From: Bacteroidota bacterium | Lineage (GTDB): Bacteria; Bacteroidota; Bacteroidia; Bacteroidales; FEN-979 | Length of the DNA stretch: 42,183 nt | Assembly: GCA_030706225.1 (NCBI GenBank) | Contig: JAUZOW010000003.1 | Coordinates: forward strand, 1-42,183 | Reading direction: 5' to 3' | Shown: one piece after another, positions 11,901 to 35,096 of the stretch | How positions within the stretch are numbered: the stretch's first letter is position 1 | Layout of the letters: every line of letters begins with the position of its first letter | Notes under the pieces: model-generated | What the model was told of the DNA's origin: nothing | Seen by the model: only the letters and a program-made list of their open reading frames with translations | Databases searched by the model: none | Position numbers and translations under genes: made by a program

Positions 11901-11975
11901 TTTCCGGCGTTCGTTGCCAGATTTCCGGCGTTTAATAAGTCGCTGATTTTTTTTCAAAACCGGGTTATATTTTTG
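11901..11975 (+). promoter_or_regulatory. LytTR-type direct repeat (TTTCCGGCGTT at 11901 and 11922, 21-bp period) plus -7 element TATTTTTG (11968-11975)
   Basis: Exact 11-bp direct repeat two helical turns apart, the geometry known for LytTR sites, upstream of a consensus TAnnTTTG. Confidence 0.65.
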
Positions 11976-11997
11976 TTCCTGTTTCACAGATTAATAA

Positions 11998-12111
11998 ATT
12001 ATCTCTGCCCTAGTTGCTGCATTATCATCTCTTCCACTGTCCCGGAAAATTAGGGGGGTTCATTAGCTCTATTAAAAGAGGGGAGGAACACCGGGGCAGG
12101 GCAGAGATAAT
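11998..12111 (+). ncRNA. Candidate structured ncRNA, copy 1 (family not recognised)
   Basis: 14-bp closing stem 11998-12011/12098-12111 and inner stem GTCCCGG 12039-12045/CCGGGGC 12091-12097 (U-G wobble favours the + strand). Sequence blocks are shared with 17030-17130; promoter upstream and terminator downstream. Confidence 0.7.
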
Positions 12112-12150
12112 CGATTTAAATTCCTCATTTTCCTTGTTTGTTATTTTGTC

Positions 12151-12183
12151 CCGTCACCAGAAAGGTGACGGAGCTTTTTATTT
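12151..12183 (+). terminator. Rho-independent terminator
   Basis: CCGTCACC-agaaa-GGTGACGG followed by agcTTTTTATTT. Confidence 0.75.
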
Positions 12184-12318
12184 AAACAGAAGAAAATCTG
12201 ATAAATGGGCATTTCTTCTTCCGGAATTTTACACAAAAGTGTAATGTTTCTGTAGACAAATGATACGCTGGCAGGCATTTTCAGGCTGATTAACTTTATC
12301 GCTCCTAAACCTTCTTGA

Positions 12319-13176
12319 ATGGATACCGAAAGTTTAATAGCCCAAATATATTCCCGGAAGCCTGAAAAAAAAACATCCTGCATCATGATTGATGATGAGG
12401 AATCAGCAAAGGAATCCTTTAAGGAAATCATAAGAGAATATTTTACAGATCGGCTTGTACTTCTTGGAACTGCCGGGTCCGTTAAGGATGGAGTAAACCT
12501 GGTCCGACATTACAACCCGGACATTATTTTCCTTAATATTGAACTACCGATAGAATGTGGATTTAAGCTGTTTAATTATTTCCCTGATTGTTCTTTTGAA
12601 GTCATCTTTACCACTTCTTTCAAACATTATACCATTGAAGCCATTAAATACTCTCCGATAGACTACCTTCTGAAACCCATCGATTATTTGGATCTGAAAA
12701 ATGTAATGGACCGGTATGAAAAAAAAATGCGGGATTATTCGGTTCGTCTGAAATTAGAAAAGCTCCTTTCAAACCTTTCTGCCGGAGCTGATATTAATCA
12801 GAAAGTAGCTCTTCCAATAACAGATGGATTTCAGATGGAAAAGATCAATGATATCATGTATTGCGAGGGAGATCTTAACTATTCCAGGATCCACACATCC
12901 GATGAACGAGTGTTCGTCGTTTCCCGGACGCTGAAAGAGATTGAAGGAATGCTGGATACTCCGTATTTCTTCCGTATCCATAAATCGTATCTTATCAACA
13001 TGAATTATGTTAAAATGTATTCCCGAAACGATAGCTATGGCATTTTCCTTGAAAATAATGAATGGCTGCCTGTTTCTACCCGTAGAAAAGATGAGTTTGT
13101 AACGGTTCTGACAAACTGGAGAAATAATATGGTGGGGAGAACGGGTAATGTCATGCATTCCTTGAATCATCATTGA
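12319..13176 (+). CDS. LytTR family response regulator with atypical receiver (phospho-acceptor Asp replaced by Asn)
   Basis: REC motifs IDDE, PDIIFLNIELP, DYLLKP and LytTR motifs SRTLKEIE, FFRIHKSYLINM, LPVSTRRK. Confidence 0.9.
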   Translation: MDTESLIAQIYSRKPEKKTSCIMIDDEESAKESFKEIIREYFTDRLVLLGTAGSVKDGVNLVRHYNPDIIFLNIELPIECGFKLFNYFPDCSFEVIFTTSFKHYTIEAIKYSPIDYLLKPIDYLDLKNVMDRYEKKMRDYSVRLKLEKLLSNLSAGADINQKVALPITDGFQMEKINDIMYCEGDLNYSRIHTSDERVFVVSRTLKEIEGMLDTPYFFRIHKSYLINMNYVKMYSRNDSYGIFLENNEWLPVSTRRKDEFVTVLTNWRNNMVGRTGNVMHSLNHH

Positions 13177-13388
13177 TCCCTGTTCCGGAAAAATTTCTTT
13201 GCCATACGGTTTCCCTGTTTCATGATAAATACCTGAATTTTTCTGTAACGAATCCATACTGAATTGAGGGTATTGAATTATATTTACATCACATTGCCTG
13301 AAATGAAGAAATACGGGTTCCGGTACATATAGGTAAAAAAATCACCCCGGCAGGGGAAACAGTATATTAATCATCAAAAACAAACATC

Positions 13389-14090
13389 ATGAAAAAGTAT
13401 GCTGCAGAGTTTATCGGAACCTTTTGCCTGGTATTTTTTGGCTGTGGTTCTGCAGTGATTGCCGGAATAACCGGTACCGGACCGAGTGGGATCGGATTAT
13501 TGGGCATCGCCATTGCTTTTGGTTTTGCTGTAGTTGCTATGGCATATGCTATCGGCAACATTTCGGGTTGTCATATCAATCCTGCTGTTACAATCGGAGT
13601 CCTTGCAGCCGGGAAAATGAGCTGGAAGGATGCAATCTTCTATATCATCGGCCAATGCCTTGGAGCAATCCTTGGTTCGGCTGTACTTTATCTCATTGTA
13701 TCTGGACGGCCAGGCTTTACAATGACTGAATGGGGACTTGGCTCCAATGGATGGGGACCCGGATATAACGGAGAATTCACGACAGTGAGCGCTTTTGTTA
13801 TTGAAACGGTCATGACCTTTATCTTCATTTTTGTAATTCTTGCCACTACTTCAAAAACCGGGAACACTACAATGGCCGGATTAGCCATTGGGGTCACACT
13901 GATGCTTATTCATCTTGTCACTATCCCGGTAACCGGTACATCCGTAAACCCTGCCCGTAGTCTTGGACCTGCTATCTTTGCCGGTGGAAATGCACTCGCT
14001 CAGCTCTGGCTGTTCATTCTTGCTCCCATCCTTGGCGCCTTAATAGCTGCCCTGGTTTGGAAAACAGGGTTTGAAAACGAAAAGAAATAA
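13389..14090 (+). CDS. aqpZ: Aquaporin Z (MIP family)
   Basis: AEFIGTF, ISGCHINPAVT and GTSVNPARS (two NPA motifs). Confidence 0.92.
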   Translation: MKKYAAEFIGTFCLVFFGCGSAVIAGITGTGPSGIGLLGIAIAFGFAVVAMAYAIGNISGCHINPAVTIGVLAAGKMSWKDAIFYIIGQCLGAILGSAVLYLIVSGRPGFTMTEWGLGSNGWGPGYNGEFTTVSAFVIETVMTFIFIFVILATTSKTGNTTMAGLAIGVTLMLIHLVTIPVTGTSVNPARSLGPAIFAGGNALAQLWLFILAPILGALIAALVWKTGFENEKK

Positions 14091-14111
14091 CCATTAAATG
14101 GGGAAGGACCT

Positions 14112-17030
14112 ATGAAAAAAACTTTTAAAATCATCGGAATTTTCTTTGCTGTTGTTCTCGTATTGTTCCTTTTTTTAGTTCTTTCCCCTTTTATTTTCAG
14201 GGAGAAATTTTCTGAAATAGTTAAAAATACCGCCAATAAATCCCTAAAGACGGAAATGAACTATTCGAAACTGGATATTTCATTTTTACGCCATTTCCCC
14301 AATCTTACCATTTCACTGGAAGATTTCTCCCTGAAATCTTCGGCTCCCTTTTCAAGAGACACCCTCATCAGTGCCCGGGAGATTTCCTTCGGCATTAACC
14401 TGGCCAGCATTTTCCATGGGCCTGTCCGGATCGATAAAGTTTATTTAAACCGTGGACGTATTGTTCTGAAATACAATGAAAAAGGTGCATCGAATTTTGA
14501 TGTGGTCAGATCTTCTTCAGATACTGTAAAAACTGCTCAAACAACTCCTGCCGGGATTGCTAATATAAAAATTGAGCATATTATTGTATCCAAAACCAAC
14601 CTGATCTACAGCGACCCTTACATTCCAATGGAGATTAAAGTGCAGGGCCTCAATTACAGTGGGAAATGCGATATCACGCAGGACATCCTTCACCTGAAAT
14701 CAAGAGTGAGGATTGATTCCATTTCCGTCAGGTATGACCAGTATCAAATTGTCAGGTCAAAGCCGGTCAAGGCTAACCTGACTACCAGTATCAACCTGAA
14801 TTCTTTCGATATGAAATTTGAAAAGAATGATCTTCATATCAAGGATATTCCTTTTGAATTCCGGGGGGAATTTAATTTCCGGAAAGGCGGATACGCGTTT
14901 TCGTTATCCCTTTATTCGACAATGGGGGATGAATATCTGGGAGGGTATCTCTGGCTGATCAGCGAAAAAAACCTTTGGATCTATGTCAAAGCCGGAGCTA
15001 AGGCTAACCTTGAAAACTGGGCGAAGGGATTTGGAATTCGTGATGTTGATCTGAAAGGACTCTTTACCCTGAAAGTAGATGCTGAAGGAGAATATATTAC
15101 CGGACAAAATCCCGAAAGCAGAAAACCAGATACCATCCCTCTGAGCATTCCTAAATTCAGTGTGTCTTCTGATCTGAAGAACGGATATCTTCATTTCAGA
15201 AAAGTTCCGCAGGCAATTTCTAACATTTCCTTCAACCTGACTGCATCCTGTTCCAATAACGATTACCGTACCGTAAACCTGCAATTGGAAAATCTTAAAG
15301 CCCGGTTCCTGAAAAACCAGATAGATGGCTATATCCGGGTTAATGGAATGGATCAGTTGCCTGTGGATGCCAGGGTGACTACTCATCTCGACCTCTCCGA
15401 ATTAAAGCAGGTCGTCCCGCTTGACAGCATGGATGTCAAGGGAATTCTGGATCTGGATCTTTCGGTAAAAGGCAATTATGCTCCGGAGAAGAAGTTGTTT
15501 CCACTTGCCAAGGTGAATATTGGACTTCAGAACGGATCGGTTCTCACAAAATATTACCCCCATCCGGTGGAGGATATCCAGGCTTCGGCAATACTTATCA
15601 ATCAGACAGGGAAGCTGGCAGATACCAAAATCAATCTTGATCCCCTTTCCTTCCGTTTTGAAGGGAATCCATTTGAAATCCATGCAAATCTTTCAAATCC
15701 TGAGAATCTGGATTATGCCGTAACGGCAAATGGATCCATAGATGTCGCAAGTATTTATAAAGTTTTTTCCCGGGAAGGAATGGATTTGAAAGGCTTTATA
15801 GCTGCCGACCTGAACCTGAAAGGACGCCAGAGTGATGCAATGGCCGGCCGGTATGAAAAATTGCACAACACAGGCAAACTGGTACTTCGTGATATTGCTT
15901 TTACTTCTGAATTTCTTCCCAAACCCTTTGTTGTAAAATCGGGGATATTCCGTTTTGAGAACGATAAGATTTGGTTTGACAAGTTTGTAAGCCGGTATGG
16001 AAATTCCGATCTGACCATGAACGGCCATCTGTTCAATGTACTGAATTACCTGCTGGTTCCCAAACAAAAGCTAAAAGGGAGCTTCGACCTGCATTCCGGA
16101 TATCTGGTAGTGGATGAATTTTTAGCTCCGGAAACGACAACATCGACGGCTCCGAAATCTGCCTCGTCATCTGAAGCAAAGAATGCATCTCAGGCTCCGG
16201 AGGGAGTTATTGTAATCCCGGATGATCTGGAGATCGGATTGAAAGCGGATGTTGGGAGGATAAGTTTTCAGAAACTGAATATTAAAGATCTGGATGCAGC
16301 GGTGGAAGTCAGAGATGGGATATTACATCTCAAATCCATGAGTTTCGATGTGATCGGTTGCAAGGTTAATATGGATGCTACTTACGGAAGTATCACTCCG
16401 GTGAGTGCCTATTTTGATTTTCATGTCAAAGCGGAAGATTTTGATATTAAAAAAGCATACGATGAAATTGAACTTTTCCGGAACCTGACCACTGCGGCCG
16501 GGAAATGTGAAGGGACCGTTTCTCTGGATTATTCACTTAAGGGGAAACTGAAAAGTGGGATGGAACCCATTTATCCGTCTCTTGACGGCGGAGGAACCCT
16601 TTCCCTGAAAAAAGTAAAAGTAATGGGCTTAAAGCTTTTTACTCAAATGAGCAAAAACCTGGATCGGGAAAAGATCAATAATCCGGATCTTTCCAAAGTG
16701 GAAATAAAAACCACGATCAAAAATAATGTCATTTCCGTTGAAAAAACAAAATTGAAATTCGCCGGTTTTCGTTTTAAAGTGTCAGGGGAGACTAATTTTA
16801 ACGGAAGCCTGAACCTTAAAGCCCGGTTGGGGTTACCGCCTCTCGGTATTTTCGGGATTCCTATCCGGATCCTTGGGACACAGGATAAGCCAAAATTTAA
16901 ATACGGTCGGGGAAATAATGATGAATCGGTAGAAGAAACGCAATATTCTGATACCATTCCTGCAGATGTACTTCAAAAGATTAAAAATGTTAAAGAAGAA
17001 GATCTGAAAGATGAAACGCCTGAAAAATAA
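14112..17030 (+). CDS. AsmA family / AsmA-like C-terminal region protein
   Basis: N-terminal membrane anchor, FLRHFPNLTISL motif and a long beta-rich body typical of Bacteroidota AsmA-like proteins. Confidence 0.8.
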   Translation: MKKTFKIIGIFFAVVLVLFLFLVLSPFIFREKFSEIVKNTANKSLKTEMNYSKLDISFLRHFPNLTISLEDFSLKSSAPFSRDTLISAREISFGINLASIFHGPVRIDKVYLNRGRIVLKYNEKGASNFDVVRSSSDTVKTAQTTPAGIANIKIEHIIVSKTNLIYSDPYIPMEIKVQGLNYSGKCDITQDILHLKSRVRIDSISVRYDQYQIVRSKPVKANLTTSINLNSFDMKFEKNDLHIKDIPFEFRGEFNFRKGGYAFSLSLYSTMGDEYLGGYLWLISEKNLWIYVKAGAKANLENWAKGFGIRDVDLKGLFTLKVDAEGEYITGQNPESRKPDTIPLSIPKFSVSSDLKNGYLHFRKVPQAISNISFNLTASCSNNDYRTVNLQLENLKARFLKNQIDGYIRVNGMDQLPVDARVTTHLDLSELKQVVPLDSMDVKGILDLDLSVKGNYAPEKKLFPLAKVNIGLQNGSVLTKYYPHPVEDIQASAILINQTGKLADTKINLDPLSFRFEGNPFEIHANLSNPENLDYAVTANGSIDVASIYKVFSREGMDLKGFIAADLNLKGRQSDAMAGRYEKLHNTGKLVLRDIAFTSEFLPKPFVVKSGIFRFENDKIWFDKFVSRYGNSDLTMNGHLFNVLNYLLVPKQKLKGSFDLHSGYLVVDEFLAPETTTSTAPKSASSSEAKNASQAPEGVIVIPDDLEIGLKADVGRISFQKLNIKDLDAAVEVRDGILHLKSMSFDVIGCKVNMDATYGSITPVSAYFDFHVKAEDFDIKKAYDEIELFRNLTTAAGKCEGTVSLDYSLKGKLKSGMEPIYPSLDGGGTLSLKKVKVMGLKLFTQMSKNLDREKINNPDLSKVEIKTTIKNNVISVEKTKLKFAGFRFKVSGETNFNGSLNLKARLGLPPLGIFGIPIRILGTQDKPKFKYGRGNNDESVEETQYSDTIPADVLQKIKNVKEEDLKDETPEK

Positions 17031-17130
17031 ATCTCTGCCTGTCCCGGCTCCCCTCCCCATTTGCAGAACCTGATTGTCTTGTGAAGCCGGGACTTATGGA
17101 AGAGTTGTCAAATTGTTTGAGGCAGAGATT
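17030..17130 (-). ncRNA. Candidate structured ncRNA, copy 2 (homolog of 11998-12111, opposite strand)
   Basis: The reverse complement reads aATCTCTGCCt..CTCTTCCA..GTCCCGG..GGTTC..GGGGAGG..CCGGGAC-aGGCAGAGATt. It has an 11-bp closing stem and an 11-bp inner stem whose U-G pair forms only on the - strand. Confidence 0.68.
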
Positions 17131-17337
17131 CTTTTTTGAAATTTTTAAAAATTATTTTTAAAAATTAAAAGTCGGAAAATATTTTACAAGGATTCTCAAA
17201 TATTCATTATTTCGATGGAAACCATTAAAATTGTTCAATATAGATTCAATTTTCTTTAGGAATTTTGTATTATTGCTTAAAAAGAATTAAAATGTTGGTC
17301 AATTATTATTTTTTTTTAGGAAGAAAATTGATTTGCC

Positions 17338-18120
17338 ATGGGGGAGAAAATATTGAAAGTGATCCTGATCGATGATGAACCTCAGGCGATTTCAGTCCTT
17401 GAACAAATACTACTCAATTATCCTCGTTTAAAAATATGCGGAAAAATTACAGATCCCGGAATAGCGATGTCGGTGATCCGGGATATCAAGCCTGACTTGG
17501 TTTTTCTTGATATTGAAATGCCTGGGAAAGATGGATTTGAGATTCTTAAGGAAATCAATGACCTGGGGTTGAATCCGTGGATTATTTTTGTGACAGCCTT
17601 TGATCAGTTTGCAATTCGTGCTCTCCGTTCGGCAGCCTTTGATTATCTTTTAAAGCCTGTTGACCTCGAGGAACTGGATAATGCTATAGTCAGGCTTTTC
17701 CGGATGCTTAGCGGAAATTCCCCGGAAAATGATGATAATCCCCTTTCTGAAAAAACAAAAAAATTGATCGTTGAAACAACGGGGCACGGGAAAATAAAAA
17801 TTTCAACCGGTAACGGATTTATATTCCTGAGGCCTGAGGATATTTTCTATATTCTTGCAGATTGGAATTATTCCGAAATCTATTATAGCCAGTATCATCA
17901 CGATATTGTGACGACCAATCTGGGATCCATTTGGAAAATGCTCCCCTCCGGGTCATTTTTCCGGATAACCCGGTCTCTCATCGTCAACCTGAAATATCTT
18001 TCCAAAGTCAACCGGAAAAAGAGGCAGATAATAATTAACAAAGACGGAGATGAATGCTCATTTACAATTCCTCTTTTGAATCTTCGCAAGATGGAGCGTT
18101 TTCTGGATTCTAACCATTAA
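17338..18120 (+). CDS. LytTR family response regulator (canonical receiver)
   Basis: IDDE, PDLVFLDIEMP, FVTAFDQFA, DYLLKP and LytTR FFRITRSLIVNL. Confidence 0.92.
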   Translation: MGEKILKVILIDDEPQAISVLEQILLNYPRLKICGKITDPGIAMSVIRDIKPDLVFLDIEMPGKDGFEILKEINDLGLNPWIIFVTAFDQFAIRALRSAAFDYLLKPVDLEELDNAIVRLFRMLSGNSPENDDNPLSEKTKKLIVETTGHGKIKISTGNGFIFLRPEDIFYILADWNYSEIYYSQYHHDIVTTNLGSIWKMLPSGSFFRITRSLIVNLKYLSKVNRKKRQIIINKDGDECSFTIPLLNLRKMERFLDSNH

Positions 18121-19219
18121 TATACCCGGGAACCTTGATTTTTTCTTTTCCTTTCAATCCCGAAATTACCTGAATATTGATTCCGTCAGATAGACCTGTC
18201 CGGATGTATCGTTTCTCAAATTTCTGAGGTGCTGTTTCCACTTCTACATAAGAAGAATCTCCTTCGAATTGCAATAAGCTTTCCTTGATAGCCATTACCT
18301 TTTCAACCCGCTGCAGAACGATATCTGCATTAGCGCTGTATCCTGCCCGAATAAACTGGTCGGGCTTCAGATTTACATCGGCTTTGATTTCAAACTGAAC
18401 AGCTCCGTTTTCAAGGACTCCTTTGGGGGCAATATAATTTAATGTCGCCTTAAAAGTATCATTTTCAATTGCGCCTACCGTAAGCATCAGGTTCATGCCG
18501 GGTTTAAGTTTACCGACCTCTGTTTCATCCAGTTTACCGTCGAAGATCATATCTCCGACATCTGCCACGGAAGCAATGGTAGTTCCTGCATTAAAATTAT
18601 TGGTTTCGATCACATTACTACCAACTTTAACCGGAACGTCGAGGATCATACCTGCAATTGTTGACCGGATCAGAGTATTCGTGGTTTTTCCCGATTTTTT
18701 ATTTACTCCTTCCCGGATCAGTTCCAGGTTAGCTTCAGCTGCATCCACTTCCTGGCTTGCATTGCGGTAAGCAATCTGTGACTGTTGGTATTCAGATTCC
18801 GGAACAACACCCTGTTTGAAAAGCTTTTCTTCCCGGGAATAATTCATTTTAGCATCGTCATATGCTATCTTTGCCTTATCAAGCCTTGCTTCTGCATTGT
18901 TAAGGTTTACCAGGTCAGGAATGATTCGGATTCTGGCAATGACATCACCGGTTTTTACTCTCTTTCCGGCTTCCACATATACTTCTTCCACGATCCCGGA
19001 TACCTGCGGCTTGATTTCGATTTCTTTCCGGGGAATGATCGATCCGGTAGCCACTGTTTTCTTGACAATATCTGTAACAAATGGGGTTTCAGTTCTGAAA
19101 ACGACCGGTTTTTCTTTCGATTTATTATAAAGATAGAAGATGGTCACAATAAAAATCAACAGGATCAGTACCAGGATGACTATCCTGATGATCTTTTTTA
19201 ATTTACTTTTCTGACTCAT
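18110..19219 (-). CDS. Efflux periplasmic adaptor subunit (MacA-like membrane fusion protein)
   Basis: N-terminal TM, ATGSIIPRKEIEIKPQVSG lipoyl-like motif, alpha-hairpin and TGLSDG C-terminus. Confidence 0.9.
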   Translation of the reverse strand: MSQKSKLKKIIRIVILVLILLIFIVTIFYLYNKSKEKPVVFRTETPFVTDIVKKTVATGSIIPRKEIEIKPQVSGIVEEVYVEAGKRVKTGDVIARIRIIPDLVNLNNAEARLDKAKIAYDDAKMNYSREEKLFKQGVVPESEYQQSQIAYRNASQEVDAAEANLELIREGVNKKSGKTTNTLIRSTIAGMILDVPVKVGSNVIETNNFNAGTTIASVADVGDMIFDGKLDETEVGKLKPGMNLMLTVGAIENDTFKATLNYIAPKGVLENGAVQFEIKADVNLKPDQFIRAGYSANADIVLQRVEKVMAIKESLLQFEGDSSYVEVETAPQKFEKRYIRTGLSDGINIQVISGLKGKEKIKVPGYING

Positions 19220-19244
19220 GAAGTGATCTCCTTTTCATTAGATT

Positions 19245-20507
19245 TTATTCATATCGTAGTGCATCAATAGGTTTAATGGCAACAGCCCGGCGTGCAGGTA
19301 TGAAACCGGCCAAAGCTCCGGAAAAGATCAGGATGATTAAAGCGGTCACAGCCACCCGGAAATTAATGCCCGGGTGAAGGAACATCTCGGTTGAAGCTCC
19401 TGATTTCTCAAGCAGGTAATTAATCAATTCCAGAACAGATACTCCCAGAGATAGTCCGATATAGCCGGCAAATGTGGTCAGGACGATCGATTCGGTAATG
19501 ATCTGGGAGATAATGGTATACGGAGAAGCGCCAATAGCTCGCTGGATCCCGATTTCCTTTGTCCGCTCCTTGACGACTACCAGCATGATATTGGAAACGC
19601 CGATCACACCGGCCAGAAGGGTCCCGATACCCACGATCCAGACCAGAACGGCAATGCCCAGAAAAAGACCTACCATTTTCTTGTACTCCACTTCCAGATT
19701 GAAATGGCCGATGGCACGGTCATCCTGTGGAGCGATCGAATGGTTCTTCTTGAGAATCCGGATGGCTTTGTCCTCCACAACAGCTACCGGGATGCCTTCT
19801 TTGGAGGTAATATTAAAAAAGCCGATGGCATCTCCGTAATTAAATGTCTTTTGCATCGTGGTGAAAGGCATGAATATATTGCTGTTGTCACGGATTGCCG
19901 ATTCCCCGGTTCGTTTGGATTTAAAAAGCCCTACAACTTCAAAATAAACTCCCTGTATCTGGATATATTTACCGATCGGGTTTTCTCCTTTCACAAAAAG
20001 AACTTCAAGAACACGGTTACCAATGACCACGACCTTTCGTTTCTCCTTGATATCCATTTCGTTAATGAAACGGCCTTTAAGAATATTAACAGGATCGATG
20101 AGGTTGTACACCGGGTAATCGCCAAAGATGTTAAATGCTCCGGATTTCAGTCCACGGATCACATTGCTGCTTCCGTTATATCCCCCGACATTCGTACGGG
20201 GAGCCAGGTATTTTATTTCAGGGATTGCAGCATGCAATGCATCTATATCATTGTTCTGGAAATTAAATTGCCTGCCTCGTGTAAAACCTTTATACGGTAA
20301 GGAAGTCTGTTGAGCCCACATAAAAACGCTGTTGGTCGCCATATCCCCGAAATTCTGAGATATTCCGTTTTCAAGACCTTTTCCCGACCCCATCATGATC
20401 ACCAGCATGAAGATACCCCAGAACACGCCAAAAGCGGTAAGAAATGTCCGGAGCTTATTCTTGCTCAGTACATGATAAATCTCCTGCCAGCGATCAAGGT
20501 CAAACAT
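19245..20507 (-). CDS. ABC transporter permease (MacB/FtsX family)
   Basis: [44 protein letters not shown] and PIDALRYE. Confidence 0.92.
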   Translation of the reverse strand: MFDLDRWQEIYHVLSKNKLRTFLTAFGVFWGIFMLVIMMGSGKGLENGISQNFGDMATNSVFMWAQQTSLPYKGFTRGRQFNFQNNDIDALHAAIPEIKYLAPRTNVGGYNGSSNVIRGLKSGAFNIFGDYPVYNLIDPVNILKGRFINEMDIKEKRKVVVIGNRVLEVLFVKGENPIGKYIQIQGVYFEVVGLFKSKRTGESAIRDNSNIFMPFTTMQKTFNYGDAIGFFNITSKEGIPVAVVEDKAIRILKKNHSIAPQDDRAIGHFNLEVEYKKMVGLFLGIAVLVWIVGIGTLLAGVIGVSNIMLVVVKERTKEIGIQRAIGASPYTIISQIITESIVLTTFAGYIGLSLGVSVLELINYLLEKSGASTEMFLHPGINFRVAVTALIILIFSGALAGFIPARRAVAIKPIDALRYE

Positions 20508-20552
20508 TTTCTTTGATTCTAGGAATTATTAAATCGTAAATCGTAATTCAAA

Positions 20553-21791
20553 TCATTCATCTCTCAATGCTTCTACCGGTTTAACTCTGGCTGCGCTCAT
20601 AGCCGGGAACAGTCCTGCAAGAACTCCTGCTACAATCAGTAAAATGGTTGCTCCGAGTGCAATTCCCAGGTCGGCCTGCGGATTTTTAAAGAAATCGAAA
20701 GGTGGCATTTTGATGCTGATCAGTTCGAGCAGCCCGACTCCCAGCACAAGCCCGACATAACCGGAAAACCCGGTGATCAGGATCGCTTCGCGGAGGACCA
20801 ATGATACAATTGAGTATGGAGTAGCCCCGAGCGCTTTTCTAACGCCGATTTCCTTGGTTCTTTCCTTAACCGATATCATCATGATATTGCTTACCCCGAC
20901 CACACCGGCTATGATCGTTCCGATGCCAATAATCCAGATAAAAAGCCGGATTCCGGCAAACAAAGAATTGAAACGTCTTACATCTTCACTTTTATTCATT
21001 ACATCAATGGCCCGTTTATCGCCCGGATCAAAAGTATGTTCACGCGCCAGCGTGAAAGTCGCCTTCTTCAGCATCGCATCGGCTTGTTCCGGCGTTGCAG
21101 TTCCTGTAGTAAATGAAATCTGGTTGATTACATTCTGGCTGAAGAAAATCCGTTGAGCAGTGCTGATCGGGAGATAAATCCTTCGCTGTTCGTAATCATC
21201 CCGGCCGAAATCACGAAAAACTCCGACAACTTTGAACAAAACACCCTTGATGTTGATATATTTCCCCAGAGCGACCGTATCGGAGCCTTTGAACAGAGCT
21301 GATTTAACCTTTTCGCCTATGGCCGCTACCTTCCTGTTTTCCCGGATATCTATTTCATTCAGAAACCTTCCCTGAATCATCTTCACTTCTTTGATAAAAC
21401 CATAATCAGGATGACAGGGGGAAATAAAAAAGGAACCATACTCTTGTTTATAGGAAACCAGCTCGTTTCCCAGGAAAAGACGGGCGGAAATATGGTCATA
21501 GCCTTTGACCGCATGCCGGATCAGGTTATAATCCTGATTGGTAAACTTAATCTCCCGTCCGGCCTGCAATCCCTTGTATTGAAGGCTGGTCATACCGTTG
21601 CTGATCCAGATTCCGTTGAGAGCGCCTCCCCTGAATTGTTCCCTGACTCCGTTTTCCAATCCGTTCCCTGATCCCAGCAATATGATCAGCATAAAGATTC
21701 ACCATGCTACGCTGAATCCCGTCAGGAAAGTACGCAACTTGTTCTTCTGAACGGTACTCAGGATCTCCTGCCAGATATCGAAGTTGTACAT
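20553..21791 (-). pseudogene. ABC transporter permease (MacB/FtsX family) with in-frame TGA at codon 31 (21699-21701)
   Basis: ATG 21791 gives [39 protein letters not shown], where the paralog has W-G-I-F-M. The rest is intact through VEALRDE. Confidence 0.75.
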
Positions 21792-21807
21792 TGATTGGAT
21801 GATCCTT

Positions 21808-22482
21808 TTAATTTTTAATGATGTCAGTAATCATACCATCGGTGATGTGAATGATGCGATGAGTTCTTGCAGAAATATCATGTTCATGAGTGACGATCAC
21901 CACTGTGATTCCGGAATTATTGATTTCTTCAAAAAGATCCATCATTTCCATAGAAGTCACCGAATCGAGAGCACCGGTTGGCTCGTCGGCAAGAATCACT
22001 TTAGGCTTTGTGATCAGTGCCCGGGCAATAGCAATTCTCTGTTTCTGTCCTCCTGAAAGTTCTGAAGGAAGATGGAAAGCCCAATCCTTAAGCCCCAGCC
22101 GATCGAGATATTCCATTGCGATCAGATTCCTTTTTTTTCTGCCGATTTTCTGATAATATAATGGCAAGGCGACGTTTTCCATTGCATTTTTAAAAGATAT
22201 CAGGTTAAATGACTGAAAAACGAAACCCAGCATCTGATTCCTTAACCGCGCAGCTTTTTTTTCATTAAGGTTGAATATCTTTGAGCCGTTAAGAGAATAT
22301 TCGCCTTTGTCATAATTATCAAGGATTCCCAGTATGTTTAGGAGAGTGGATTTTCCTGACCCGGATGCACCCATAATCGATATCATTTCCCCTTCTGCAA
22401 TATCAAGGTCGATACCTTTCAATACGTGTAACCGATTTTCACCGGTAATATAGGATTTATGAATGTCCCGGATATGTATCAT
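21808..22482 (-). CDS. ABC transporter ATP-binding protein (MacB/LolD type)
   Basis: [28 protein letters not shown] and VTHE. Confidence 0.95.
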
Positions 22483-23849: not shown

Positions 23850-23955
23850 GGAAGATCAATGGGTCAAATGTCGGGCAACCTGTCAAAAAGTTACGGTTTT
23901 ACCGATATTTTTTACTGGTTCGCGATGAGTTTATTGAATTTTTTTAGAATTGTTT

Positions 23956-24014: not shown

Positions 24015-27000
24015 ATGAATAAAGCATTATTTCTCGTATGCATGATGCTTTTATGCACCGGCATTACCTATAGCCAGAACTCTGATTTAAAACCTAAGGT
24101 TGTAAAACCTGTCTATTTTGATGTATCGCCTCCGTTAAGCGAAATAGCCAGATCTCTCCGTGCAACACCATCAACTTCCTGGAAAGATGGGGTTGTTAAA
24201 AATCATTTCGATCAGCGACAGAATAATAATGCCGTTGTCGTCGATAAGGTTGAACAACAGTCTTATCCTGAATCACCTCTGGTATCAACCGACCAGAATT
24301 TTGACGGAAATACCAATACAGAAGGGTATGTCCCTCCCGATACAGATGGTGATGTCAGCACGAATTATTACTTCCAGGTCGTAAACTGCCATTATTCCAT
24401 TTACAGTAAAACCGGTTCATTACTTCTGGGTCCTGTGGAAAACAGTGCCGTATGGAATGGGATGCCCAATAATTCCAACGATGGCGATGCAGTGGTCATT
24501 TACGACAGCCAGGCTGATCGATGGGTTTTTACCCAGTTTTCATTGCCGAATTATCCTGACGGACCATTTTATCAAATGATAGCCATTTCCCAGACCAATA
24601 ATCCGCTGGGTTCCTGGTACCGTTATGAATATTCGTTCTCAGATATGAACGATTACCCCAAATTTGGAATTTGGCCTGACGGATATTACATGTCGGCCAA
24701 CCGCTTTTCTGCAGGATCGTTTAATTATGCGGGTACAGCAGTTTATGCCTATAACCGGTCCCTGATGCTTATCGGGGATTCAACCGCACAACAGGTTTCC
24801 TTTACTTTATCCTCCTCCGATCCGGCTTTTGGATTTCTTCCGGCAGATTGTGACGGTTCATTTCCTGCTTCCGGTACCCCTGAATATTTTGCTTACATAA
24901 ATAAAAATACATACAATCTAAGGGTTTATCAATTCCATGTCGACTGGACTACAACTTCGAATTCCACTTTCGGGAGCTACCAGGATATTTCTGTTTCTTC
25001 TTTTAATACTACTACTTCACAAAACTATATTCCCCAGCAGGGAACCAGTGTTAAGCTGGATCCGATTGAAGATCGTTTGATGTACCGGATGCAGTACAGA
25101 TCCTTCTCGGATCATAAATCCATGGTCGTTTGTCATAATGTAAATAATACATCCGGCGTTACCGGGGTTCGTTGGTACGAACTCAGAAATACCGGATCGA
25201 CATGGACTAAATACCAGGAAGGAACATATAACCCGGGCGACGGTGCATATCGTTGGATGGGAAGTATTGCCATGGATGCCAACGGTGATATTGCTCTGGG
25301 ATATTCAAAATCAAGTTCCGGTATGTACCCTTCCGTCTATTTTACGGGAAGATTAAGCACGGATGCTCTCAATACAATGACTGTAACCGAAAGTGTGATC
25401 CAGAACGGATCAGGATATCAGAGTTCCAGTTCTCACCGCTGGGGTGATTACAGCGCAATGACCATTGATCCCTCTTCGTCTAATACTTTCTGGTATACTC
25501 AGGAATATATTCAAACTACAGGTCAGGCTAACTGGAAAACCCGTATTGCTTCATTTCATCTGGGAACTGCCGGCGTTCCGCTGTCGGTTACTGCAACGGC
25601 GAATCCTGCAGTCTGTAATCCCGGAGCTGCAGTTCAGCTAAGCACTACGGCTTCCGGAGGAACGGGTTCCTATACCTATTCCTGGTCCTCAAATCCTGCC
25701 GGATTTACTTCCACTTCTCAAAATCCTGTGGCTTATCCGTTAATCAATACAACCTATTCCGTTCTGGTCACCGACGGTGCTTCCTCAGGCACAGGAAGCT
25801 GTTCCGTCACCGTAAACATGAGTGCGACAGCGACAGCTACACCTTCCGTGATCAACCCGGGCAGCAATTCACAACTGAGTGTGTCCGTCCAGGGAGGAAG
25901 CGGTGTTTATACCTATTCCTGGACGTCAATTCCTGCAGGATTTACGTCAACTTCTGCCAATCCGGTGGTTTCACCAGCAATGAATACAAGCTATTATGTG
26001 ACAGTAAGTGATGGCTCTCAAACAGTGAATGCTTCATGTATCGTAACGGTCAACATGACAGTTAACCCTACTGCAACACCTTCTGCGATTAACGTGGGAA
26101 GCAGCTCTCAGCTGAGCGCCAATGTTCTGGGAGGTTCCGGTAACTACACATACTCCTGGACTTCCGTTCCGGCCGGATTCACTTCGACCGGTGCAAGTCC
26201 TGTCGTAACACCTTCCGTAACAACAGTCTATACCGTTGCCGTTAACGATGGTACCCATCTCATGTCGGGTTCCTGCACCGTTTCCGTAAATTTGGCCGTG
26301 AATGCTTCCGCAAACCCATCCTCAATTAATTTGGGAGGAACATCCCAGTTAAGTTCGGTTGCACAGGGAGGGAGCGGAACATTTACTTACTCGTGGGTGT
26401 CCACTCCTGCAGGATTTACATCGAACCAACAGAATCCCGTAGTATCTCCGACAGTAAGCACAATGTACACAGTAACAGCCAACGATGGCTCGCAAAACCA
26501 GAGCGCATCTGCAAATGTCCTGGTCAACATGACGGTAAACGTAACGGCAACGCCTTCCACGATCAATGCCGGACAAAGTTCACAATTAAATACAACGGTC
26601 ACCGGAGGAAGCGGAACCTATACCTATTCCTGGGTATCCAACCCGGCAGGGTTTGCATCCTCCAGCCCCAATCCGGTAGTAACCCCGACGGTCAACACTA
26701 TTTATACGGTTACGGTTAATGACGGTACTTTGAATGCAAACGGCAGCGCAACGGTTAATGTCAATCTTTCATCTTCAGCCAGTGCATCACCTTCTTCCAT
26801 CTGTGCAGGAGATTCGACACAACTTAGCGCAAATGCAATGGGAGGATCTGGTAATTATACCTATAGCTGGACTTCAACACCTTCGGGATTTACTTCAACG
26901 CAGGCAAATCCGGTCGTTACCCCGTCAGCTACGACAACTTATACCGTTCAGGTCATCGACGGTTCCAATACTACCAATAGCATGACGACAGTGTATGTAA

Positions 27001-27554
27001 CGGCTCTTCCGGTGGTGAATGCCGGTTCCGATACCATCGTTTGCAAGGATGTCGTCAAAATGCCTGTATATGGTACCGCTTCGAACCAGTCTTCAGTAAC
27101 CTGGACTACTTCAGGCGACGGAACATTCCAGAATCCGACCTTGCTGAGTACGTATTATTATCCCGGCGCAAATGACCGGAATAGCTCTTCGGTTACTTTA
27201 ACACTGACGGCTCATCCGAATACACCCTGCTCGTCGAACATCTCAGATAACAAAGTAGTAACCATTGATGCATGTACCGGAATCTCTCATGTTTCCGGTA
27301 ATGATTTCGGAGTTTCCGTTCTGCCGAATCCATCCCGGGGGCTCTTTATGGTTTCTATTACCGGCGTGGCATCAGGAACCCTTCACCTGACGGTTTATAA
27401 TGCCAATGGGCAAATGGTTTATTCAGAAGATGTGAATTCAACCGGGAATATTACCGAAAAAAATATGGACCTTGTCTCATTTTCCAAAGGGGTCTACCTG
27501 CTTAAAGTGGAAGCAGGAGATAAAGAAAGGACAGTAAGGGTTGTAATCGATTAA
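24015..27554 (+). CDS. T9SS type A cargo protein with six 79-aa Ig-like repeats
   Basis: Signal peptide, N-terminal domain with PPDTDGDV, DYPKFGIWPDGYY and RWGDYS, repeats GG(T/S)GxYTYSW, and CTD LPNPSRG...GVYLLKV...VRVVID. Confidence 0.88.
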   Translation: MNKALFLVCMMLLCTGITYSQNSDLKPKVVKPVYFDVSPPLSEIARSLRATPSTSWKDGVVKNHFDQRQNNNAVVVDKVEQQSYPESPLVSTDQNFDGNTNTEGYVPPDTDGDVSTNYYFQVVNCHYSIYSKTGSLLLGPVENSAVWNGMPNNSNDGDAVVIYDSQADRWVFTQFSLPNYPDGPFYQMIAISQTNNPLGSWYRYEYSFSDMNDYPKFGIWPDGYYMSANRFSAGSFNYAGTAVYAYNRSLMLIGDSTAQQVSFTLSSSDPAFGFLPADCDGSFPASGTPEYFAYINKNTYNLRVYQFHVDWTTTSNSTFGSYQDISVSSFNTTTSQNYIPQQGTSVKLDPIEDRLMYRMQYRSFSDHKSMVVCHNVNNTSGVTGVRWYELRNTGSTWTKYQEGTYNPGDGAYRWMGSIAMDANGDIALGYSKSSSGMYPSVYFTGRLSTDALNTMTVTESVIQNGSGYQSSSSHRWGDYSAMTIDPSSSNTFWYTQEYIQTTGQANWKTRIASFHLGTAGVPLSVTATANPAVCNPGAAVQLSTTASGGTGSYTYSWSSNPAGFTSTSQNPVAYPLINTTYSVLVTDGASSGTGSCSVTVNMSATATATPSVINPGSNSQLSVSVQGGSGVYTYSWTSIPAGFTSTSANPVVSPAMNTSYYVTVSDGSQTVNASCIVTVNMTVNPTATPSAINVGSSSQLSANVLGGSGNYTYSWTSVPAGFTSTGASPVVTPSVTTVYTVAVNDGTHLMSGSCTVSVNLAVNASANPSSINLGGTSQLSSVAQGGSGTFTYSWVSTPAGFTSNQQNPVVSPTVSTMYTVTANDGSQNQSASANVLVNMTVNVTATPSTINAGQSSQLNTTVTGGSGTYTYSWVSNPAGFASSSPNPVVTPTVNTIYTVTVNDGTLNANGSATVNVNLSSSASASPSSICAGDSTQLSANAMGGSGNYTYSWTSTPSGFTSTQANPVVTPSATTTYTVQVIDGSNTTNSMTTVYVTALPVVNAGSDTIVCKDVVKMPVYGTASNQSSVTWTTSGDGTFQNPTLLSTYYYPGANDRNSSSVTLTLTAHPNTPCSSNISDNKVVTIDACTGISHVSGNDFGVSVLPNPSRGLFMVSITGVASGTLHLTVYNANGQMVYSEDVNSTGNITEKNMDLVSFSKGVYLLKVEAGDKERTVRVVID
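25580..27000 (+). repeat. Six tandem intragenic repeats with exact 237-nt period (boundaries approximate)
   Basis: The GG codons of the GGxGxYTYSW motif fall at 25656, 25893, 26130, 26367, 26604 and 26841. Confidence 0.9.
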
Positions 27555-27609: not shown

Positions 27610-27615
27610 GATCTT

Positions 27616-28578: not shown

Positions 28579-28594
28579 AAATAACGAGTTATTC

Positions 28595-31213: not shown

Positions 31214-31237
31214 GGCTGGATTATTAAATCATTCACT

Positions 31238-31257: not shown

Positions 31258-31276
31258 GTTTTTAAAAAGATTCCTT

Positions 31277-31927
31277 ATGGCTAATAATATGAAATTCGGG
31301 GATAATTATTCCGATATAAGTACCGATACTGCTTTTCAGTTTGAATTCCGCTGTGAATGCTGCGGTACGGCATACCGGTCAACTGCAAAAGCATATATTA
31401 CAGGACGAGCATCCCAGCTACTGGGTGCTGCCGGTTCACTTTTCGGGGGTTTTTTGGGAAGTGTCTCATCTGTTGGGAATACTGTAAAAGATGCTGCCTG
31501 GAAAAAGGCGCATGATAAGGCTTTTCAGGAAGCAATTGAAGAGATGACACCGATGTTTATCCAGTGTCCTCATTGCCATGCATGGGTTTGCAGAGAACAA
31601 TGCCTGAATACCCGGAAAGGGCTTTGCAAGAATTGCGCTCCCGATCTGGGTGTGGAAATGTCGTATGCCCAATCCATGAAATCGGTTGAAGAAATTCACG
31701 AACATGCTGCCATGGCTGAGGAAGATAAGAAGCTGGGTGTCGAAAACTGGAGGTCAAATATACGGGCTACATGTCCGAAGTGCAATGCTCCCCTGGCAAG
31801 CAATGCTAAATTTTGCCCGGAATGCGGGGCCCCGCTGAAGCAGGAAGATAAATGTCCTCATTGCGGGACAAAAGTGACACCGGGAGCTAAATTTTGCCCG
31901 GAATGTGGAGGAAAGATCAATGGATAG
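31277..31927 (+). CDS. Zinc-ribbon (double zinc ribbon) domain protein
   Basis: Multiple CxxC pairs and AKFCPECG twice at the C-terminus. Confidence 0.85.
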   Translation: MANNMKFGDNYSDISTDTAFQFEFRCECCGTAYRSTAKAYITGRASQLLGAAGSLFGGFLGSVSSVGNTVKDAAWKKAHDKAFQEAIEEMTPMFIQCPHCHAWVCREQCLNTRKGLCKNCAPDLGVEMSYAQSMKSVEEIHEHAAMAEEDKKLGVENWRSNIRATCPKCNAPLASNAKFCPECGAPLKQEDKCPHCGTKVTPGAKFCPECGGKING

Positions 31928-33518
31928 AAAGCACATAAACAAAGTATATCAGCCGCTGGTATTTGCTCTTGTTTTGCTGGCGGGAATTTTTCTTGGATTT
32001 TTTCTGGCCAGGGAAGGAAAGCTTGGAAACCTTAAAAAGCAGGACAAGCTGAAGGAAGTTATTAATTATGTCAAAAAGAATTATGTGGATTCGGTTTCCA
32101 CGGAGGAGCTGACCGAAAAAGCAATTACCGGTATGCTTCAGGGACTGGATCCGCATTCGGTTTATATTTCAGCAGCCGAGTTTCATGATTACAACGATCC
32201 CTTACTGGGAAGCTTTGAAGGGATTGGTGTTGAGTTCCGCATCGAGAGAGATACCGTTACAGTGATCACCCCGGTTCCCGGCGGTCCTTCCGAAAAGATC
32301 GGAATTCGGGCGGGTGACCGGATCGTGAAAGTAAACGGGAAAACTATTGCCGGTGTCAAGATTACCAACCGGGATGTCATGAAACAATTGAAAGGCCCGA
32401 AAGACACGAAAGTTACGCTGACAATCTTCCGAAGAGGAGCCGGCGGATTGCTGACTTTTACCGTTACCCGTGATGTGATTCCGACATATAGCCTGGATAT
32501 CGCTTATATGGTCGATAAGAATATCGGCTATATCCGGCTGAATAATTTTGCTGAAACTACATCCAAGGAAATCAATAAAGCTCTGAATGACCTGAAATCA
32601 AAAGGGATGAAAAAGCTGATCCTTGATTTGCGAGGTAATGGCGGAGGTTTCCTGAAAGCAGCTATTGATGTCGCCGATCAATTTATTCCAAATGATGCGA
32701 AGATCGTTTATACACAGGGAAAACATCATTCGAAGGAAGAGTTTTTTGCCACCTCTACCGGTTTGTTTATGCACGGCGACCTGGTTATCCTGATTGACGA
32801 GTATTCCGCCTCAGCCAGTGAAATCGTTGCCGGTGCAATTCAGGATAACGACCGGGGACTGATCATTGGAAGACGTTCATTCGGGAAAGGATTGGTACAG
32901 GAACAGCTGGACCTGAAAGATGGCAGTGCAATCCGACTTACAGTCGCACGGTATTATACCCCGACCGGACGATGCATTCAGCGGCCCTATGCTAATGGCA
33001 CCGATGACTATTACAATGAAGCTTACCGGCGGCTATTGTCGGGCGAACTGGACAGCCGTGACAGCATAAAACTGCCGGATTCCCTGAAATACAAGACCCC
33101 GAAAGGAAAGATCGTTTATGGTGGCGGTGGCATCATGCCGGATATTTTTGTTCCGATTGAAAAGGATTCCATGGATAAATATTATATCGCCCTTGTCAAT
33201 AAAGGTCTTATTTTCCAGTTTGCCTTCGATTACACCGATAAGTATCGCGACATGCTTAACCATTATAGGAATTTTGCATCTTTCGACCGGAATTTTCAGA
33301 TCACGGATAATATCTTCAGGGAACTCATTGCCTATTGTGAGAAGAACGGAGTTAAGAGGAACATAAAGGAAACTCCGGAAGGTGACAGAAAAATCAAAGT
33401 TCTGCTGAAAGCATATATTGGCCGGAATGTTCTTGACAATGACGGGTTTTATCCTTACCTGAACACAATCGACCCGGTATTCCTGAAAGCAGTTGAAACA
33501 TTGAGCCATCATAAGTAG
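31920..33518 (+). CDS. S41 family C-terminal processing peptidase (PDZ + peptidase)
   Basis: LDPHSVY, FEGIG PDZ motif, DLRGNGGG, SASASEIVAGAIQD and FGKGLVQ. Start set at ATG 31920. Confidence 0.93.
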   Translation: MDRKHINKVYQPLVFALVLLAGIFLGFFLAREGKLGNLKKQDKLKEVINYVKKNYVDSVSTEELTEKAITGMLQGLDPHSVYISAAEFHDYNDPLLGSFEGIGVEFRIERDTVTVITPVPGGPSEKIGIRAGDRIVKVNGKTIAGVKITNRDVMKQLKGPKDTKVTLTIFRRGAGGLLTFTVTRDVIPTYSLDIAYMVDKNIGYIRLNNFAETTSKEINKALNDLKSKGMKKLILDLRGNGGGFLKAAIDVADQFIPNDAKIVYTQGKHHSKEEFFATSTGLFMHGDLVILIDEYSASASEIVAGAIQDNDRGLIIGRRSFGKGLVQEQLDLKDGSAIRLTVARYYTPTGRCIQRPYANGTDDYYNEAYRRLLSGELDSRDSIKLPDSLKYKTPKGKIVYGGGGIMPDIFVPIEKDSMDKYYIALVNKGLIFQFAFDYTDKYRDMLNHYRNFASFDRNFQITDNIFRELIAYCEKNGVKRNIKETPEGDRKIKVLLKAYIGRNVLDNDGFYPYLNTIDPVFLKAVETLSHHK

Positions 33519-33561
33519 AACAGAAAGAAATTTAGTTATTAACCAATAAAAGACAACGGTT

Positions 33562-34137
33562 ATGATACACGAACTTCCTTCATTGCCCTATGCATTGAAT
33601 GCATTGGAGCCTTATATCTCTATGCGTACGCTGGAGTTTCATTATGGAAAGCATCATCAGGCTTATGTGACGAACCTGAACAAGCTGATCGTGGGTACGG
33701 AGTTTGAAAACGCTTCACTGGAAGACATTATCCGGAAAGCTATCGGCGGTATTTTCAATAACGGGGCTCAGGTATGGAATCATACTTTTTATTGGAATTG
33801 TATGAACCCGACAGGGGGAGGAGAACCTACAGGAAAACTGGCAGATGCCATTAAAAAGCAATTCGGGTCCTTCGCTGAATTCAAAGACAAATTTTCCAAT
33901 GCGGGTGCAACGCTTTTCGGTTCAGGCTGGGTCTGGCTGGTGAAAAACCCTGACAATTCCCTGGAGATTATCCAGGAAAGTAATGCCGGAAATCCTTTAA
34001 GGAACGGGAAAACTCCGCTTTTGACCTGCGATGTGTGGGAACATGCTTATTACCTGGATAAACAAAATGCTCGGCCTGCTTACATTGCCGACTTCTGGAA
34101 TCTCGTTAATTGGGATGCTGTAGGGGGAAGATTATAA
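33562..34137 (+). CDS. sodB: Fe/Mn superoxide dismutase (Fe-type signature)
   Basis: [24 protein letters not shown] and DVWEHAYY. Confidence 0.93.
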
Positions 34138-34334
34138 AACCTACTCTTCTGCTTGTACATTGCCCTAACGGAAAATTTCAAATTTTCTTTGCCCAAAATT
34201 TGAAAGTAATATAATTATGTTTATTTTGCGATGAATTTGATACTGGCATTGTATTGCTATCCATAGGTGTTGTTTGGAAATCTTATGGGTAACTATCTGT
34301 AATAGCTGTATATTATTGTTTTTAAAATAAATCA

Positions 34335-35096
34335 ATGTTATCTTGTGTTCTGATTGATGATGAACAGGATTCATTAATCGCACTGAAAAAGCTTCTCGTA
34401 AATTTTACATATGTTCCGGTCAGAATAGTTGGGGAAGCCACTAACCTTGATAATGGAATCCAACTGATAAAAGACACTCTCCCTGATATTGTCTTTTTAG
34501 ATATTAATATGCCGGGTAAAAACGGTATGGATATCTATAAATACTTTGACAACCCACAATTCAAGGTTGTTTTCATTACAGAATACAGTCAGTTTGCCAT
34601 TGAAGCAATAAAGAAATCAGCTTCAGATTATTTACTGAAACCGGTGAATTTTATCGAGCTTAATGAATCCATAAAAAGAATTTCTGCTCAGTTTAAGTGG
34701 GAACAACACCAGCGGGAAGTGGAAAATAAAGAGAATTTGATTAATGTGCCTGAAATGGAAGGGAAAAACGTGGTTCTTAATGTGGAGCATGGATTTTTAA
34801 TCGAAAATACTAAAAATATTGAGTACTGCTATGCTGACCAGTCCTATTCTGTTATTGTAACCTGTACTGGCAAGAAAATCCTGGTTACAAAACCGCTTAA
34901 ATACCTTGAAAAACTGTTTCCTGCCAATCAATTTTACAGAACACATAAATCCTATCTTGTTAATATCTATTATATTAGAAGGTATGTCAAATCGGATGAG
35001 AATTACCTTCTTCTCAGAAGCGGAATAAAAATTCCTGTTTCGGTAAGAAAGAGTTCAGGAATTGACGGAGAAATCAAAAAGCTTTTTGAAGGTTGA
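34335..35096 (+). CDS. LytTR family response regulator
   Basis: IDDE, PDIVFLDINMP, DYLLKP and LytTR FYRTHKSYLVNI, IPVSVRK. Confidence 0.9.
   Translation: MLSCVLIDDEQDSLIALKKLLVNFTYVPVRIVGEATNLDNGIQLIKDTLPDIVFLDINMPGKNGMDIYKYFDNPQFKVVFITEYSQFAIEAIKKSASDYLLKPVNFIELNESIKRISAQFKWEQHQREVENKENLINVPEMEGKNVVLNVEHGFLIENTKNIEYCYADQSYSVIVTCTGKKILVTKPLKYLEKLFPANQFYRTHKSYLVNIYYIRRYVKSDENYLLLRSGIKIPVSVRKSSGIDGEIKKLFEG

Follow-up and report, generated by a model that had tools for sequence, protein, structure and literature searches.

Kinase-less LytTR regulators and a predicted LytTR-box-driven small-RNA family in a Bacteroidota genome

Three response regulators of the LytTR family, designated LytTR1, LytTR2 and LytTR3, are encoded in a stretch of 42,183 nucleotides (nt) from a Bacteroidota bacterium (GTDB lineage Bacteroidales; FEN-979; GenBank assembly GCA_030706225.1, contig JAUZOW010000003.1), and a hairpin element of about 100 nt lies upstream of two of them and at a third place in the genome. 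The whole stretch, referred to as the window, is contig C165 of genome G000, an assembly of 2.66 Mb in 241 contigs that is 99 % complete by marker genes. As judged from their orthologues, the three regulators were orphaned by loss of their kinases and not by expansion of the gene family, and two of the three element copies stand behind tandem boxes of the type carried by LytTR1 orthologues. The element is predicted to represent a family of small RNAs driven from LytTR boxes, a reading to which we give about an even chance. Comparisons were made with 89 genomes of the same family and 400 genomes of the order, the genus itself being represented by G000 alone. The features concerned are listed below.

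12319-13176, + strand: LytTR1, receiver and LytTR domains, asparagine (Asn) at the phospho-acceptor position; the next gene encodes an aquaporin, not a kinase.
17338-18120, + strand: LytTR2, receiver and LytTR domains, acceptor aspartate (Asp) kept; the cognate kinase is missing.
34335-35096, + strand: LytTR3, receiver and LytTR domains, acceptor Asp kept; without adjacent kinase, element or boxes.
11886-11897 (weak), 11907-11918 and 11928-11939, + strand: three direct-repeat boxes with a 21-nt period, a predicted LytTR1-type binding site.
11968-11975, + strand: -7 element TATTTTTG, a match to TAnnTTTG, 28 nt after the last box.
12001-12108, + strand: element copy 1, with stem P1 (ATCTCTGCCC/GGGCAGAGAT), an unpaired CU-rich CTCTTCC and stem P2 (GTCCCGG/CCGGGGC); 108 bits with covariance model R2.
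12151-12181, + strand: intrinsic-terminator-like hairpin and T-run, with an 8-bp stem, six GC pairs and the tail AGCTTTTTAT.
17031-17129, - strand: element copy 2, in the opposite orientation to copy 1 and without LytTR1-type boxes; 86.3 bits with model R2.
C179:6134-6186, + strand: box region with tandem boxes upstream of copy 3.
G000:C179:6244-6348, + strand: element copy 3, without a LytTR neighbour, found by covariance model and pattern match.

Upstream of copy 1 there are two exact occurrences of the 10-mer TTCCGGCGTT, at 11902 and 11923, a distance of 21 nt. Fourteen family proteins at 43-58 % identity to LytTR1 were taken as its orthologues, and the regions upstream of their genes hold two or three RCGKTnAWT direct repeats with a 20-22-nt period, the last often ending in ATAAG. 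A box matrix of 12 columns was built from 21 sites in these upstream regions, with the G000 sites excluded, and both strands of the whole genome were scanned for box pairs 20-22 nt apart. The two best of the 135 tandem sites scoring at least 12, both on the strand of the element, are C179:6154 (23.8 bits), which precedes copy 3 by 90 nt, and C165:11907 (22.3 bits), which precedes copy 1 by 94 nt; of the top 15 sites, all but these two fall within open reading frames (ORFs) of at least 120 amino acids (aa). The boxes would be bound by LytTR1, because the regulators that carry them are its orthologues, or by LytTR3, its nearest paralogue.

The geometry of this promoter is shared with the relatives. 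Tandem scores of at least 11.4 are found in 10 of the 14 LytTR1 orthologue loci. TAnnTTTG is the -7 promoter consensus of the Bacteroidota, and in the orthologue loci it stands about 17 nt before the start codon, at 27-28 nt from the last box in five loci and at 47-49 nt in four more, the latter corresponding to an extra box period, with boxes 1 and 2 as the best pair there. In G000 the distance from the last box to the -7 element is 28 nt at both copies 1 and 3, and the element, not the gene, comes next, 19-22 nt further along (25 nt at copy 1 when counted between the coordinates listed above). The order at copy 1 is boxes, -7 element, hairpin element, terminator and LytTR1 start codon, with a further -7-like sequence, TAACTTTA, 20 nt ahead of that start codon. 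No ATG was seen by eye on the sense strand of elements 1 and 3, and both copies have the layout of a LytTR-driven RNA, namely boxes, promoter, RNA, terminator or U-tract, and no coding potential. For copy 2, no tandem box pair within the 200 nt upstream, read on the strand of the copy, scores above -2.7, and inspection by eye of the regions upstream of the kinase-regulator operons of seven relatives yielded no defensible motif for LytTR2 boxes.

The element itself was first seen as ATCTCTGCC ... GGCAGAGAT, enclosing 81-90 nt, in the intergenic regions upstream of both LytTR1 and LytTR2. Copy 3 is recovered, at E = 0.006 in 47 kb, by a covariance model (R1) for which only copies 1 and 2 were used, and pattern searches together with a model built from all three copies (R2, E ≤ 1, 86-108 bits) give a genome total of exactly three. 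All 10 pairs of P1 are formed in all three copies, with three pairs changed on both sides, and the 9-nt stem arms of copies 1 and 2 are identical. P2 is invariant (GTCCCGG...CCGGGRC) and followed by CAGG in the three copies, and the CU-rich stretch (CTCTTCC or CTTCTCC) is unpaired in three of three minimum-energy folds. G-U pairs favour the fold on the box-proximal strand at copy 3 (z = -3.24 on the + strand against -1.25 on the - strand); copy 1 is contrary (z = -2.40 on + against -3.78 on -), and the values for copy 2 are -4.41 on - and -3.93 on +. A pseudoknot between the CU-rich stretch and a G-run in the P2 loop is possible in copies 1 and 2 and was dropped as a candidate, the G-run being absent from copy 3. 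A GC-rich hairpin directly followed by a U-tract, as in an intrinsic terminator, is present at copy 2 on both strands and at copy 3 on the + strand; directly after copy 1 there is no U-tract, AATCGATTTAAATT coming next, and the terminator is separate, at 12151-12181, 42 nt past the copy and 137 nt ahead of the LytTR1 start codon.

The first-pass annotation, made from the window sequence, had two regulators flanked by the same RNA motif. A shared element does lie 209-211 nt upstream of both LytTR1 and LytTR2 (12108-12319; 17129-17338), and the arrangement differs between them. The interiors of copies 1 and 2 align in opposite orientation (z = 3.4, reached by 1 of 1000 shuffles) and not in the same orientation (z = -1.5), so copy 2 is inverted relative to copy 1. 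It begins 1 nt past the asmA stop codon, has T-runs on both sides and faces away from LytTR2. The spacing is equal despite this inversion and despite sequence-unrelated spacers; at two of the three copies it is unlikely by chance, and for copy 2 no mechanism is proposed.

The third copy is placed differently. Its unit, with TTTCTTTATTTT at its end, is flanked by a QueG-like gene and, convergent to it, a UbiX-like gene. In 15 relatives these two genes are convergent as well, and their aligned ends are about -1 to 107 nt apart; in G000 the distance is 251 nt, and the box-promoter-element unit is therefore an insertion relative to them. By this comparison the insertion on C179 comprises the whole unit with nothing else to express, there being no same-strand protein gene downstream of the copy 3 boxes for about 3 kb.

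All three regulators pass the curated cut-offs for the PF00072 receiver and PF04397 LytTR domains. The genome holds eight LytTR genes, six matches to the LytS-type kinase family PF06580 and 27 HATPase_c matches; five of the LytTR genes lie about 1 kb from a same-strand PF06580 kinase gene, and the remaining three are exactly the window trio. None of the 33 window ORFs scanned with Pfam has a His_kinase or HATPase_c domain, contig C165 holding 0 of the 6 PF06580 and 0 of the 27 HATPase_c matches, so that the description of the trio as lacking adjacent kinases, and as kinase-uncoupled, was borne out. For one PF06580 kinase (C33, minus strand) no partner can be seen, its ORF running off the contig end, and a propeller fragment on C117 also reaches a contig end. 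The description of one regulator as non-phosphorylatable is likewise supported by alignment of the eight proteins: the acceptor motif of LytTR1 is DIIFLNIELP (FLNI), and the other seven have F(L/I)DI. By comparison with the orthologues this Asn is a recent, lineage-specific change, since all 14 keep the Asp, in other genera of the family.

The kinases that are missing here are present in the relatives. Directly 3' of the regulator, 13 of 14 LytTR1 orthologue loci have a propeller kinase ORF (Reg_prop and/or Y_Y_Y, His_kinase and HATPase_c), and the fourteenth locus stops about 300 nt past the regulator. Against G000 these kinases give only repeat matches at 23-37 % identity; of the three Reg_prop ORFs of the genome, one carries a type IX secretion system (T9SS) sorting tail, a second is a fragment next to a T9SS-tailed gene, and the third, of 1016 aa, is not adjacent to a regulator. 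For LytTR2 there are 13 orthologue loci at 45-54 % identity, and a kinase ORF of at least 476 aa precedes the regulator in seven of them; all seven extended loci (7/7) have a kinase ORF of 702-733 aa, and an eighth locus has a 733-aa kinase ORF ending 267 nt upstream. The best G000 matches of these LytTR2-type kinases, at 24-33 % identity, are to other kinases. LytTR3 has one partial orthologue (60 % identity) in the 89 family genomes, its next matches being the LytTR1 orthologues at 35-38 %. Upstream of the LytTR2 orthologues at two loci of relatives (L088 and L091) the DNA seems by eye to hold short in-frame remnants of a kinase C-terminus or His_kinase domain, which suggests that the LytTR2 kinase was lost more than once in the family. 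At another locus (L141, G001:C1) the 260 nt 5' of the LytTR2-type kinase start encode the C-terminus of a kinase of the same type, and the kinases of that relative are therefore in tandem.

Since the orthologues still have kinases, the trio is explained by kinase loss. The idea of an expanded LytTR network did not hold, the eight genes falling within the 4-14 found in 24 family genomes. The three regulators are old paralogues, their mutual identity being only about 30 %, and they have orthologues of their own in other genera, which contradicts the proposal that small RNAs were duplicated together with them: the divergence of the regulators predates that of the genera of the family, whereas copies 1 and 2 still share identical stem arms. 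That proposal is also contradicted by the inversion of one RNA copy and by the third copy, which has no LytTR neighbour.

On the reading favoured here, this small genome has lost the kinase genes of its three regulators, LytTR1 losing its acceptor Asp as well. In related genera a tandem-box promoter stands directly before the LytTR1 regulator-kinase operon. In G000 the box-promoter module is present twice and is followed each time by an element copy, giving module, element and terminator ahead of LytTR1 at 11886-12181, and module, element and U-tract between two convergent housekeeping genes on C179. From sequence we infer that the element is transcribed and acts as a base-pairing RNA; it would be a small RNA of about 130-200 nt from a LytTR-activated promoter, the exposed CU-rich stretch pairing with purine-rich translation-start regions. 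Copy 2 lies in the region shared with LytTR2, without these boxes. A bolder form of the proposal is that rewiring has left a receiver-dead, kinase-less LytTR protein with a direct regulon made up entirely of paralogous small RNAs, one of them inserted in its own leader as a feedback device or attenuator, in an RNAIII-like effector arm that evolved independently in Bacteroidota, with the remaining copy (copy 2) wired to the second orphan through the shared divergent region. This extension is speculative, and we regard it as rather doubtful.

Several observations weigh against the small-RNA reading. There are only three copies, in a single assembly fragmented into 241 contigs, and the stem covariation is drawn from n = 3; copy 2 is inverted and has no boxes; the -7 match at copy 3, TATTTTAG, is off consensus at one position; and all three copies lie just 3' of a gene end, with U-tracts at copies 2 and 3, so that a terminator role fits too. 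An Asn in the acceptor position usually inactivates the receiver, and LytTR1 may activate nothing. The sites of the box matrix were hand-picked by eye, the main safeguard being the success of the matrix at copy 3, which was not yet recognised as an element copy. An exact-pattern scan of two public collections gave 20 matches (8 genome-contig and 12 metagenome-contig loci), mostly in unrelated GC-rich taxa (47-73 % GC), none of which continues into the closing stem arm. The P2 pattern gave 6 single matches in the 400 order genomes against 9 for the reversed control, and model R2 gave 10 matches in the 89 family genomes at 21.8-26.9 bits, without boxes and mostly coding as read.

Other searches for relatives of the element were equally negative. 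Rfam 15 has 0 matches in the window at gathering thresholds, and around the three copies only chance-level matches (E = 1.6-4.9). A BLAST search of copy 1 against 60 relatives gave two 19-nt chance matches only, and is insensitive, copies 2 and 3 not being detected by BLAST either. With one mismatch allowed, the P2 pattern matched 82 of the 89 family genomes and was too noisy; two of the 150 matches listed had 0 mismatches and were read as coding. Among 29 family loci compared for asmA synteny, the aquaporin-asmA order is kept in five, a LytTR gene lies within the 1.5-kb flanks in none, and the element was not found in any of the 11 readable regions downstream of asmA.

The position of all three copies 1-146 nt past a gene end, the T-runs directly following copy 2 (both strands) and copy 3 (+ strand), and the long GC-rich stems within AT-rich spacers would also suit dispersed terminator or insulator hairpins without a function in trans. 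The boxes would then only autoregulate LytTR1; the hairpin of copy 2 would be the terminator of asmA, that of copy 3 would act for the QueG-like/UbiX-like pair, and that of copy 1 would block read-through out of the T9SS cargo gene. This is unlikely in our view, because boxes and a -7 element, with the spacing of the orthologues, separate the upstream stop codon from the hairpin in copies 1 and 3, and because the copy 3 boxes have no same-strand protein gene for about 3 kb. In addition, about -1 to 107 nt suffice between the same convergent genes in relatives, a canonical terminator distinct from the hairpin is needed downstream of copy 1, and a common P2, CAGG linker and CU-rich stretch are not expected of unrelated terminators. 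A cis-acting leader at copy 1, an attenuator or ligand sensor gating read-through into LytTR1 in place of the kinase input, with the other copies decayed or unrelated, is judged quite unlikely. The order of promoter, structured element, terminator and gene at 11968-12319 is the classic layout for it, and LytTR1, having lost its kinase and acceptor Asp, would need another input; however, copy 3 has the same boxes and promoter with no gene downstream, copy 2 points away from LytTR2, no alternative anti-terminator pairing was identified, and TAACTTTA could give LytTR1 a promoter of its own.

The copies could also be relics of a miniature inverted-repeat mobile element, with P1 as the terminal inverted repeats and the LytTR adjacency arising by accident or through target preference. 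The copies do have inverted ends; the same sequences equally make up the P1 stem. Copies 1 and 2 have identical ends and diverged interiors, copy 3 and its surroundings are inserted relative to the 15 relatives, and copy 1 parts an ancestral promoter from its gene, all as this explanation would have it. We nevertheless hold it to be very unlikely, given that there are just three copies, that no target-site duplication was seen in their flanks, that no related element was found in the 89 family genomes, the 400 order genomes or the two collections, that G-U pairs make the fold strand-specific, and that the C179 insert extends beyond the hairpin to boxes and promoter.

Control of T9SS surface proteins by the LytTR regulators and the RNA, which the first-pass annotation had proposed, is unsupported. 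The T9SS C-terminal sorting domain was found by Pfam on two window proteins (8616-11855 and 24015-27554), and since Por_Secre_tail has 85 matches over the 2.66 Mb of the genome, or one in about 31 kb, two such genes in the window are expected by chance. LytTR-like boxes had been placed before both the RNA and a T9SS cargo gene. They do precede element copies 1 and 3, as the two best sites of the genome, and do not precede the cargo gene at 24015, which has a single 12-mer, ACGGTTTTACCG, at 23893 (5.9 bits) with a partner 21 nt downstream that scores -17.5; the site is not among the 135 genome-wide tandem sites scoring at least 12. Pairing of the three CU-rich regions was computed for the segment from -40 to +20 around each of 2092 crude ORF starts. 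Predicted pairing is poorer for the 47 T9SS-tailed genes than for the remaining ones (p = 0.99-1.0, one-sided), and the two cargo genes of the window rank 1688-2089 of 2092, so neither tandem boxes nor an enrichment of pairing links the system to this class of genes. The strongest predicted CU-rich duplexes are at C146:1467 (-), C198:8078 (+), C178:7476 (-) and C4:9079 (+), with purine-rich starts such as GGAAGAGATGAT. The C146 gene is a top duplex match for both copies 2 and 3, and the N-terminus of its product resembles, by eye, cytochrome bd subunit II. These duplex candidates are leads only, the gene starts being crude.

Around these features the window contains, downstream of LytTR1, the aquaporin gene (13389-14090) and an AsmA-family gene (14112-17030), and, convergent with LytTR2, an HlyD/FtsX/FtsX/ABC export cluster (18110-22482, - strand). 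The adjacent FtsX/MacB permease genes of this cluster are paralogues, with a 94-nt stretch that is 73 % identical (19549-19642 and 20845-20938). The SprB-repeat T9SS cargo gene has six tandem 237-nt (79-aa) repeats at 25656-26943, with 62-78 % identity to the first, and a protein with a CHU_C-type sorting domain is encoded at 3738-5495. Two adjacent ORFs of 224 and 120 aa at 5615-6671 (- strand) both match MFS_3 (profile positions 194-399 and 5-62) and resemble a single transporter gene that is split or without its middle part. The ORFs at 35175-35990 (- strand, 271 aa) and 36708-37115 (+ strand, 135 aa) have no Pfam match at E ≤ 0.001; the former appears by eye to start with a lipoprotein-like signal. 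A cluster at 36114-39577, with an ArsR-type helix-turn-helix regulator, a DsbD_2 membrane protein, an S-adenosylmethionine-dependent (SAM) methyltransferase and DUF5714, looks like an operon of the metalloid-resistance type.

Action of LytTR regulators through regulatory RNA is already known from the virulence systems agr, VirRS and Fas of Firmicutes. AgrA-type sites consist of 9-bp repeats with a 12-13-bp spacer. AgrA-P3-RNAIII of Staphylococcus aureus, VirR/VirS-VR-RNA and FasA-FasX each join a LytTR-family regulator, direct repeats and the promoter of a regulatory RNA (PMC3673130), and the likeness to AgrA-P3-RNAIII includes boxes of the same kind that also serve the operon of the regulator itself. 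The present case differs in phylum, in its T9SS genes, in the TAnnTTTG-type promoter, in the lack of a peptide signal and kinase, and in the Asn receiver; the element has no sequence similarity to RNAIII, has three short paralogous copies instead of one long RNA, and is known from sequence alone. CdtR of Clostridioides difficile and HdrR/BrsR of Streptococcus mutans are described as LytTR regulators functioning with no histidine kinase gene beside them (PMC4944984, PMC6193735). HdrR and BrsR reportedly have no receiver domain and are kept in check by an inhibitor in the membrane, and no such partner gene lies beside the window trio. In contrast to CdtR and HdrR/BrsR, the orphans described here can be traced back to ancestral operons of regulator and kinase from which the kinase was lost. 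In Bacteroides, families of paralogous small RNAs such as FopS and GibS combine a promoter of the -7 type with an intrinsic terminator and a seed that is exposed, and the element has no sequence or Rfam relation to them. No link between LytTR regulators and regulatory RNA was described for the Bacteroidota in the literature searched.

The reach of the finding is modest, as it concerns one uncultured, fragmented genome without close relatives in the databases, and what would have been the most consequential part of the hypothesis, that T9SS surface proteins are under this control, is not supported. If the RNAs are real, a two-component system would have survived the loss of its kinase by keeping an autoregulated promoter, copied before small RNAs, and its regulon would be compact, consisting of two promoters and three RNAs.

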